Both the position numbers and the translations under genes were made by a program. Positions 6,599-6,802 of a stretch of DNA of 7,211 bases are shown here, piece after piece. The stretch is from a virus (taxonomy: Duplodnaviria > Heunggongvirae > Uroviricota > Caudoviricetes), in the IMG/VR virus record IMGVR_UViG_2529292747_000014, one strand, 5' to 3'. The notes below the pieces were generated by a model. It was not told the DNA's origin. It saw only the letters and a program-made list of their open reading frames with translations, and ran no database searches. The number at the start of each line of letters is the position of its first letter. Positions within the stretch are counted from its first letter, which is position 1.

Positions 6599-6802
6599 TT
6601 ACATCCCTCCACATAAACCGCAGAACAGAAGTGACTCTGTTTTTTTGTAAAGAAATGCCGCCATATAAAGATGTCGAACAAAAAACAACCACAATCATCA
6701 TCTTTTTAATACTAACAGCATTAAAAACAACAAGTTACCATCATGATGATGATGACGATAAAATCACAAAAATGCGCCTTTTTCCGCGCCCGCCCGCCCC
6801 GT
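6599..6802 (-). other. Putative cos region: cosN-like GC box with cosB-like repeats upstream of the Nu1-like gene
   Basis: The minus strand reads ACGGGGCGGGCGGGCGCGG (complement of 6784-6802), whose first 9 nt match the lambda cos junction ACGGGGCGGCGACCTCGCGGG as recalled, and it lies ~200 bp upstream of the terS ATG (lambda ~190 bp). The AT-rich stretch between carries direct repeats AAAAACAAC (6681-6689, 6723-6731) and the palindrome CATCATGATG (~6739-6748). Confidence 0.4.

Follow-up and report, generated by a model that had tools for sequence, protein, structure and literature searches.

A probable lambda-type cos site beside a satellite-split large terminase gene in an E. coli O157:H7 prophage

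A short GC-rich box lies upstream of a small terminase gene in a 7,211-nt stretch of tailed-phage DNA (IMG/VR record IMGVR_UViG_2529292747_000014; the whole stretch is referred to here as the window), in which the large terminase gene ends early. This raises the question of whether the box belongs to a genuine cos site and, if so, which element that site serves. From the sequence comparisons below, it is very probable that a genuine cos lies at window 6670-6844 (minus strand), that it belongs to a lambda-like prophage of E. coli O157:H7 with a gpA-family large terminase (TerL) and a DUF1441 small terminase (TerS), and that the terL of this prophage is split by an excisable satellite. The kind of cos is already known, being a conventional lambda-type cos of a common O157 prophage lineage.

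An earlier note on this DNA had taken the first 9 nt of the GC box to match the lambda cos junction, about 200 bp upstream of terS and in the correct orientation, and each part of this was borne out. A single copy of ACGGGGCGG is present in the window, on the minus strand at 6794-6802 (mean of 0.03 matches in 200 shuffles), and it is identical to the final 3 nt of the lambda right end (ACG) joined to GGGCGG, the 6 nt with which the left cohesive end opens. The GC content reaches 75% at 6780-6819 and is only 25-35% in the adjoining 6640-6760. The predicted cohesive end begins at 6799, 201 bp from the terS ATG (6598), compared with 190 bp from cos to the terS start in lambda, and cosN, cosB and terS all lie on the minus strand. 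The alignment to lambda that the note had proposed as a check matched block for block; in an anchored comparison that took in 12 relatives as well as lambda, the window's blocks aligned with those of DUF1441-TerS phages and of lambda. The interval first assigned to the site, 6599-6802, covers a real site but cuts off its upstream part and misses cosQ (6824-6830).

On the minus strand the window reads ATTATCATTTTTGCGGGTCCTCCTGGTGGGGTGGGCCTGAACACG/GGGCGGGCGGGC GCGGAAAAAGGCGCATTTTTGTGATTTTATCGTCATCATCATCATGATGG, the slash marking the predicted nick. In lambda, cosQ is the packaging-termination signal, and its homologue in the window, GGGTCCT (6824..6830, minus strand), is identical to the lambda heptamer and at the equivalent position. 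In the anchored comparison the heptamer was also present in CP-1639, PhiR40_1, cdtI, mEp043, LLS, Eeyore and Kp4865-4. It lies 22 nt upstream of CG/GGGCGG, which puts it 24 nt from the nick, against 23 nt in lambda, and the pattern GGGTCCT-N20-24-CGGGGCGG gave one match in the window (with N22) and none in 200 shuffles. Just upstream of cosQ is the conserved block ATTATCATTTTT (6833..6844, minus strand; lambda equivalent TCATTATCACTTT), whose T run is 1 nt different in length from that of VT1-Sakai and EDL933, the sole difference in the cos region.

The predicted cosN, CACG/GGGCGGGCGGGC/GCGG, spans 6784..6803 on the minus strand, with a predicted 5' cohesive end running from 6799 to about 6788. 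The junction CACG/GGGCGGGCGGGC is found at 6788-6803, and CACG/GGGCGG (6794-6803, minus strand) is shared without change by lambda and by the phages with records starting there. In lambda-like phages the 7-bp cosQ is highly conserved, as are the CG dinucleotides flanking the nicks and bp 1-6 of the cohesive end, with bp 7-12 varying freely (PMC4669245). The window has the same CG before the nick and the same cohesive-end positions 1-6 as lambda, and fits all of these published features, the CG after the second nick aside, which depends on overhang length. Directly to the right of the cohesive end, the conserved block GCGGAAAAAGGCGCATTTTT (6768..6787, minus strand; lambda equivalent CGCGGGTTTTCGCTATTTAT) is near-identical in CP-1639, PhiR40_1, cdtI, mEp460 and the cos sites of the satellite island (cos1 and cos2, described below), and related in LLS, Fels-1 and lambda. 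The spacing between the CACG and CGCGG flanks is 11 nt in the window, 12 nt in lambda, cdtI, LLS and 08-00022, and 10 nt in CP-1639, AH21G053 and the island's cos2, so that the length of the overhang (11 or 12 nt) and the place of the second nick are uncertain. Such variation among close relatives would be unexpected if the nick stagger were fixed at 12.

Recorded genome ends are available for phages with homologous sites. A tblastn search with TerS matched 56 phage records, in several of which 120-240 bp separate terS from the first base of the record. For cdtI, Tritos and LLS the record opens exactly at the homologous GGGCGG, reading GGGCGGGAGCGTCGCGGAAAAAGGCTAGTTTTT in cdtI and Tritos, and bases 1-12 of LLS carry the 12-nt annotation "5' extended single-strand cohesive site GGGCGGCGCGCT". 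At their right ends, LLS and cdtI show GGGTCCT-N22-CACG, finishing in CCACG. For the window's own cosB type no mapped ends were found in phage records or the literature, and a full-text search with cohesive-end strings and with DUF1441 together with terminase returned no paper describing this cos. Its close relatives are all prophage records; the exact cos sequence occurs in 17 IMG/VR contigs, all prophage-derived, and is internal in each of them, making these matches uninformative on termini.

The same comparisons bear on a reading of the GC box and repeats as a chance or regulatory feature (a terS promoter, a terminator or a small ORF) with no packaging role. A 273-nt hypothetical ORF does cross the region in the EDL933 RefSeq annotation, and one promoter-like match was found at 6735-6764 on the plus strand. 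However, a single such match is what chance would give (0.7 +/- 0.7), the scan of 6500-7000 detected no terminator-like site and no above-chance promoter signal, and the conserved blocks align with recorded phage genome ends and with lambda subsites in a cosQ-cosN combination that none of the shuffles reproduced. A chance or regulatory origin is thus extremely improbable. A search of the whole window against Rfam returned no family. The EDL933 gene call, a 90-aa "hypothetical protein" (WP_001302882.1, positions 3033-3305 of the EDL933 locus, corresponding to window ~6631-6903 on the plus strand), extends across cosB, cosN and cosQ and is probably spurious; the equivalent ORF in the window has 69 aa (6631-6840).

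Between cosN and terS, the window contains an AT-rich candidate cosB (6670-6757, minus strand), in which an R3-like CATCATCATCAT and an inverted GATGATGAT flank an IHF-like site, with a third conserved block beyond them. The R3-like element CGTCATCATCATCATGATGG (6738..6757, minus strand), the presumed proximal TerS binding site, is located 43-62 bp from the left end, lambda R3 lying at about 48-65 (PMC9026076). CATCATCATCAT is invariant in VT1-Sakai, EDL933, AH21G053, 08-00022, the island's cos2 and Fels-1, and is found at the same distance in LLS, mEp043, Eeyore, Kp4865-4 and yong2. The putative IHF (I1-like) site AAACAACAAGTTA (6725..6737, plus strand) matches WATCAANNNNTTR at 12 of 13 positions, has a flanking A-tract, and is the sole match to the IHF consensus with at most one mismatch in 6599-6860; it sits between the inverted ATCATCATC arms. 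On the terS strand this site reads TAACTTGTTGTTTTTA, lambda having TAACTTAATGTTTTTA just after R3, and perfect consensus matches at the equivalent place were read by eye in CP-1639, the island's cos1, mEp460 and cdtI. The R2-like element GATGATGAT (6694..6702, minus strand) is inverted relative to the R3-like element and forms with 6745-6753 a perfect 9-nt inverted repeat, 42 nt apart; AAAAGATGATGA is invariant in the window's lineage, the island's cos2 and Fels-1. The third block, GGTTGTTTTTTGTTCGACATC (6670..6690, minus strand), holds an R1-like CGACATC that points the same way as the R3-like element; within the block, TTGTTTTTTGTTC is common to CP-1639, both island cos sites, mEp460 and PhiR40_1, and Fels-1 has GTTCATCATC there. 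A complex cosB with R3, the IHF site I1, an inverted R2 and R1 is typical of many lambda-like phages (PMC4669245), and at the level of sequence pattern the window has the same arrangement. The cos blocks stay unchanged between O157 prophages and Salmonella Fels-1, in which TerS is 58% identical, and the spacers diverge.

An AT-rich repeat had been reported to occur twice between the GC box and terS. AAAAACAAC is indeed present at 6681-6689 and 6723-6731 (plus strand), with two or more copies in only 1 of 200 shuffles, and the suggestion that these repeats are cosB elements was partly upheld: both copies are conserved in relatives and lie between cosN and terS, but as TerS sites they are not the leading candidates. 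As primary TerS sites they were set aside on two observations, one copy being inside the IHF-like site and the block that holds the other being missing from the LLS group, which keeps CATCATCATCAT. The inverted (C)ATCATCATC (ATCATC) elements, placed like lambda R3 and R2, appear to be better candidates.

The adjoining terS (6122..6598, minus strand) encodes a 158-aa protein, 100% identical to that of VT1-Sakai, which is matched by Pfam DUF1441 (E=3.8e-48) and by PHROG 141 "terminase small subunit" (E=6e-66), with a weaker profile match to a second PHROG terS family, phrog_57 (E=1.8e-10). A helix-turn-helix DNA-binding part is predicted at residues 1-63, together with a TerL-facing C-terminal part. 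The description of this terminase as "Nu1-like" was not sustained, BLASTP against lambda Nu1 giving no alignment and Pfam giving DUF1441 only; TerS is Nu1-like in position and presumed role only. An AlphaFold2 single-sequence model had a mean pLDDT of 54.5, too poor to show a winged helix, and a PDB sequence search with TerS returned only chance-level matches to Csm3 (E about 0.6).

The relationship of TerS to cosB was examined in two relatives. With Fels-1, the window shares 70% identity over TerS residues 1-63, 51% over residues 64-158, 81% over cosB and 74% over cosQ-cosN; with CP-1639, the corresponding values are 54%, 94%, 69% and 97%. TerS is therefore a mosaic that co-varies with cosB, and cosB and the TerS N-terminal part travel as one cassette, as would be expected if that part reads cosB, like in lambda and phage 21. 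This exchangeable cassette, consisting of cosB and the first 63 terS codons, is nearest to Fels-1, and cosQ-cosN together with the TerS C-terminal part is nearest to CP-1639.

Strain PA2, of E. coli O157:H7 type, matches the window at 100% identity, and 43 other complete genomes contain 80% or more of it. The window corresponds to positions 15001-21959 of a locus in strain 272, annotated in RefSeq as a lambdoid prophage, where the order is Q, tRNAs, holin, lysozyme, antirepressor, Rz, cos region, terS, terL, portal, protease/capsid fusion and tail genes. The strain 272 annotation shows the late genes downstream, from portal and the protease/capsid fusion to the tail genes, as intact over the 37 kb examined. 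Over 860 bp the window is 99.9% identical to VT1-Sakai (Sp15), and the cos elements are identical in VT1-Sakai (Sp15) and the EDL933 prophage. DNA of Sp15 was found packaged in particles from O157 Sakai lysates (PMC2669165).

Upstream of cos, the left end of an IS629 copy occupies 6957..7211 (plus strand), 99.6% identical to bases 1-255 of the VT1-Sakai IS629. It is inserted 127 bp upstream of cosQ, between the Rz/lysis genes and cos, with a 3-bp overlap at the junction between window 6957-7211 and the uninterrupted sequence. Among the 20 best-matching genomes listed, PA2 is the only one with this insertion, the match stopping at 6959 in the other 19. The cos itself is intact, but IS629 separates terS from the upstream late operon and could reduce late transcription into terS in PA2. 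About 100 records of Stx1a-converting and other phages (such as PV340545.1 and LC645428.1) match only 6824-6959 or 6854-6959, at 92-93% identity. These matches cover cosQ and its upstream flank and stop at or just before cosN, which suggests that cos marks a recombination boundary separating phages that carry different terminase modules.

Downstream of terS, the window contains the N-terminal 335 codons of terL (5118..6125, minus strand), with the gpA ATPase domain (Pfam GpA_ATPase, E=6e-82), and the stop codon that truncates the gene (5118-5120) is formed by island sequence. A blastn search with the intact VT1-Sakai terL against the strain 272 locus gave two segments of 99.9% and 100% identity, lying 10.4 kb apart and overlapping by 12 bp. 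The overlap between these segments places the attL junction of the satellite, with the core TTGGATG..AGGG, at 5113..5129 (minus strand). The rest of terL is annotated in strain 272 as "terminase gpA endonuclease subunit", 10.4 kb away. The same prophage is present in EDL933 with the site empty, VT1-Sakai is also without the island, and both prophages have an intact 707-codon terL. The terminase had been described as crippled; its two halves instead match the intact gene at 99.9% and 100% identity, with a satellite separating them at a 12-bp att overlap, so that precise excision would restore terL.

These observations also bear on a reading in which the site is the relic cos of a dead prophage with an irreversibly crippled terminase, acting as a cis signal for a different cos-type helper. 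Within the window terL does end at codon 335, O157 strains are known to complement defective prophages in trans (Sp4, presumably via Sp14; PMC2669165), and the cos region is found in several places in some genomes, with up to six per genome. Set against this are the missing terL half, 100% identical and only 10.4 kb away, the 12-bp att overlap with an intact integrase and a small HTH gene at the junction, the empty site in the same prophage of EDL933, and the two cos sites carried by the island itself. In strain PA8, moreover, the cos query matched only two places, which probably correspond to this cos and the island's cos2 and hence to no separate helper. A relic cos is accordingly considered improbable. 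As the split terL can be restored by excision, the prophage is most likely the helper of the satellite and still packages from this cos. The proposal that a cos-type helper could package this region in trans survives in part: this would be possible with a co-resident phage having the same TerS, but it is more likely that the element packages itself.

The satellite is a PICI-like island of about 10.4 kb, the left part of which occupies 1..5116 of the window (minus strand), as seen from the RefSeq annotation of strain 272 and Pfam matches to integrase and Bro-N; it continues to position 9698 of the strain 272 locus. Its genes comprise int, a small HTH gene, Bro-N, an Icd-like gene, primase, SSB and a ClpP-protease/capsid fusion. 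The tyrosine integrase gene (3718-4956, minus strand, by Pfam) is next to the terL 5' half and co-oriented with terL. Two cos sites of the island, both outside the window and co-oriented, were found on the minus strand of the strain 272 locus. The first, cos1 (about 13040-13100), has the cosN GGGCGGAGGGGC, and its cosB and that of CP-1639 share 90% identity. The second, cos2 (10389-10583), matches the prophage cos along 202 bp at 86.6% identity, with GGGTCCT, CATCATCATCAT and GATGATGA all present, its cosB being 83% identical to the helper's. After cos2, where the phage has terS, there is a 93-aa ORF (PHROG 1561, function unknown).

The main point of the earlier hypothesis, that the prophage cos could let the neighbouring island be packaged by a helper, falls with these two sites, since an island with its own cos sites does not need it. 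The converse possibility, that the cos in the window belongs to the satellite as a PICI-type cos used with an Rpp-like redirecting protein, draws on the proximity of a PICI-like island and on the finding that PICI cos sites keep a helper-like cosQ and cosN for cutting by the helper TerL (Fillol-Salom et al. 2019, PMC6739421, reviewed in PMC9026076). However, the cos is outside the att boundaries of the island, and it stands between Rz and terS-terL-portal just as in the island-free VT1-Sakai and EDL933 and in other phages. Its complex R3/I1/R2/R1-like cosB also differs from the described PICI cos, in which cosB is replaced by a single Rpp-specific R3 (PMC9026076). Ownership by the satellite can be given hardly any credence, and the site is best read as the cos of the prophage. 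The island's own cos2 departs from the PICI/Rpp arrangement too in that it copies the whole cosB of the helper, and Pfam and PHROG scans of two small island ORFs gave no Rpp homologue.

Helper-embedded PICIs (HE-PICIs) offer the closest comparison for the island. In their published configuration, excision of the satellite brings back the interrupted late gene (Tommasini, Mageeney and Williams 2023; PMC10111431). The island has the HE-PICI order of zones, with int and HTH followed by Bro-N/Icd-like/YlcI, primase and SSB, and then the ClpP-protease/capsid fusion with the cos sites, so that integration, Bro, replication and late zones are all represented. The configuration is also that of an HE-PICI: int, HTH, Bro-N and primase are on the terL strand, the junction overlap is 12 bp, and EDL933 and VT1-Sakai are empty. 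The island shares a cos-like segment with its helper, as is reported for 11capE (PMC10111431). In contrast, its target is a GpA-family terL with the att core TTGGATG, it has two cos sites, and the doubled attP motif is absent. That motif, TGTATTGC, is reported as unique to HE-PICIs, where the doubled tgTGTATTGCantgTGTATTGCa flanks the attP centre at a distance of about 81 bp on the upstream side and 132 bp on the downstream side (PMC10111431). A search of the 37 kb for the doubled tgTGTATTGCantgTGTATTGCa with up to 3 mismatches matched only inside the capsid gene, at chance level, and no likeness to the doubled motif was seen near attL (4960-5120). Published HE-PICIs have their own integrase clade and 14 catalogued sites; in the supplementary text of PMC10111431, as far as accessible, the gene A sites are Terminase_1-profile only, and neither "GpA" nor "ttggatg" is present. 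The island is therefore best described as sharing the HE-PICI configuration, with only putative membership of the clade. It is possible, if rather doubtful, that the satellite is helper-embedded outside the HE-PICI clade, with a new GpA-type terL att site, no doubled attP motif and two cos sites with different cosB specificities, one reproducing the complete cosB of the host prophage and the other of the CP-1639/mEp460 type. If so, the island could be packaged by terminases with two different TerS DNA-binding parts, without an Rpp-like redirecting protein, and as long as it stayed unexcised, further co-oriented cos sites would lie downstream of the helper's cos, at distances of 8.7 and 11.2 kb.

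Compared with lambda, the prophage cos has the same order of subsites, orientation to terS, GGGTCCT, CG/GGGCGG, R3 distance and I1-like site, together with a gpA-family TerL. It differs in cohesive-end positions 7-12 (GCGGGC, vs CGACCT in lambda), in a right-flank spacing 1 nt shorter, in R elements of (C)ATCATC rather than CGTTTCC, and in a DUF1441 TerS without BLASTP similarity to Nu1; with different R elements and TerS, its packaging specificity is likely to differ from that of lambda. The DUF1441-TerS lambdoids LLS, mEp043, mEp213, cdtI, Tritos, mEp460, Fels-1, Gifsy-2 and VT1-Sakai share the same terminase families and cos blocks. Among them, LLS, cdtI and mEp460 have other cosB sequences and TerS DNA-binding parts, whereas Fels-1 has the same cosB type (81%). 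Within the same organism, the O157 prophage Sp4, which lacks an intact terminase, was packaged, presumably by the terminase of Sp14, which has an identical cos (Asadulghani et al. 2009; PMC2669165). Both cases concern a prophage without a working terminase and, for Sp4, packaging via a shared cos; here, however, the disruption is due to an excisable satellite and there to an IS in nu1, and figure S8 of that paper covers the putative cos sites of Sp4 and Sp14 only.

If the site works as in lambda, the (C)ATCATC elements of cosB (R3-like, inverted R2-like and R1-like) would be bound by TerS through its N-terminal DNA-binding part, and IHF would bend the AT-rich site between R3 and R2. TerL would in this way be placed on cosN, where staggered nicks would leave a 5' overhang beginning GGGCGG; packaging would then proceed toward terS and terL, and cosQ of the next cos would direct the terminal cut. 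The nick positions, the binding of TerS and IHF, and packaging from this copy are all predicted from the lambda model.

The present analysis assigns positions to cosQ, cosN and cosB for a terminase type often met in Shiga-toxin and other O157 prophages; 401 of 5426 complete E. coli genomes contain 80% or more of the cos region. In RefSeq this region is unannotated or covered by a spurious ORF. None of this would surprise a specialist on lambda or PICIs. For the interpretation of prophages in general, a truncated terminase gene beside an integrase can denote a helper-embedded satellite rather than decay, which alters predictions of prophage mobilisation.
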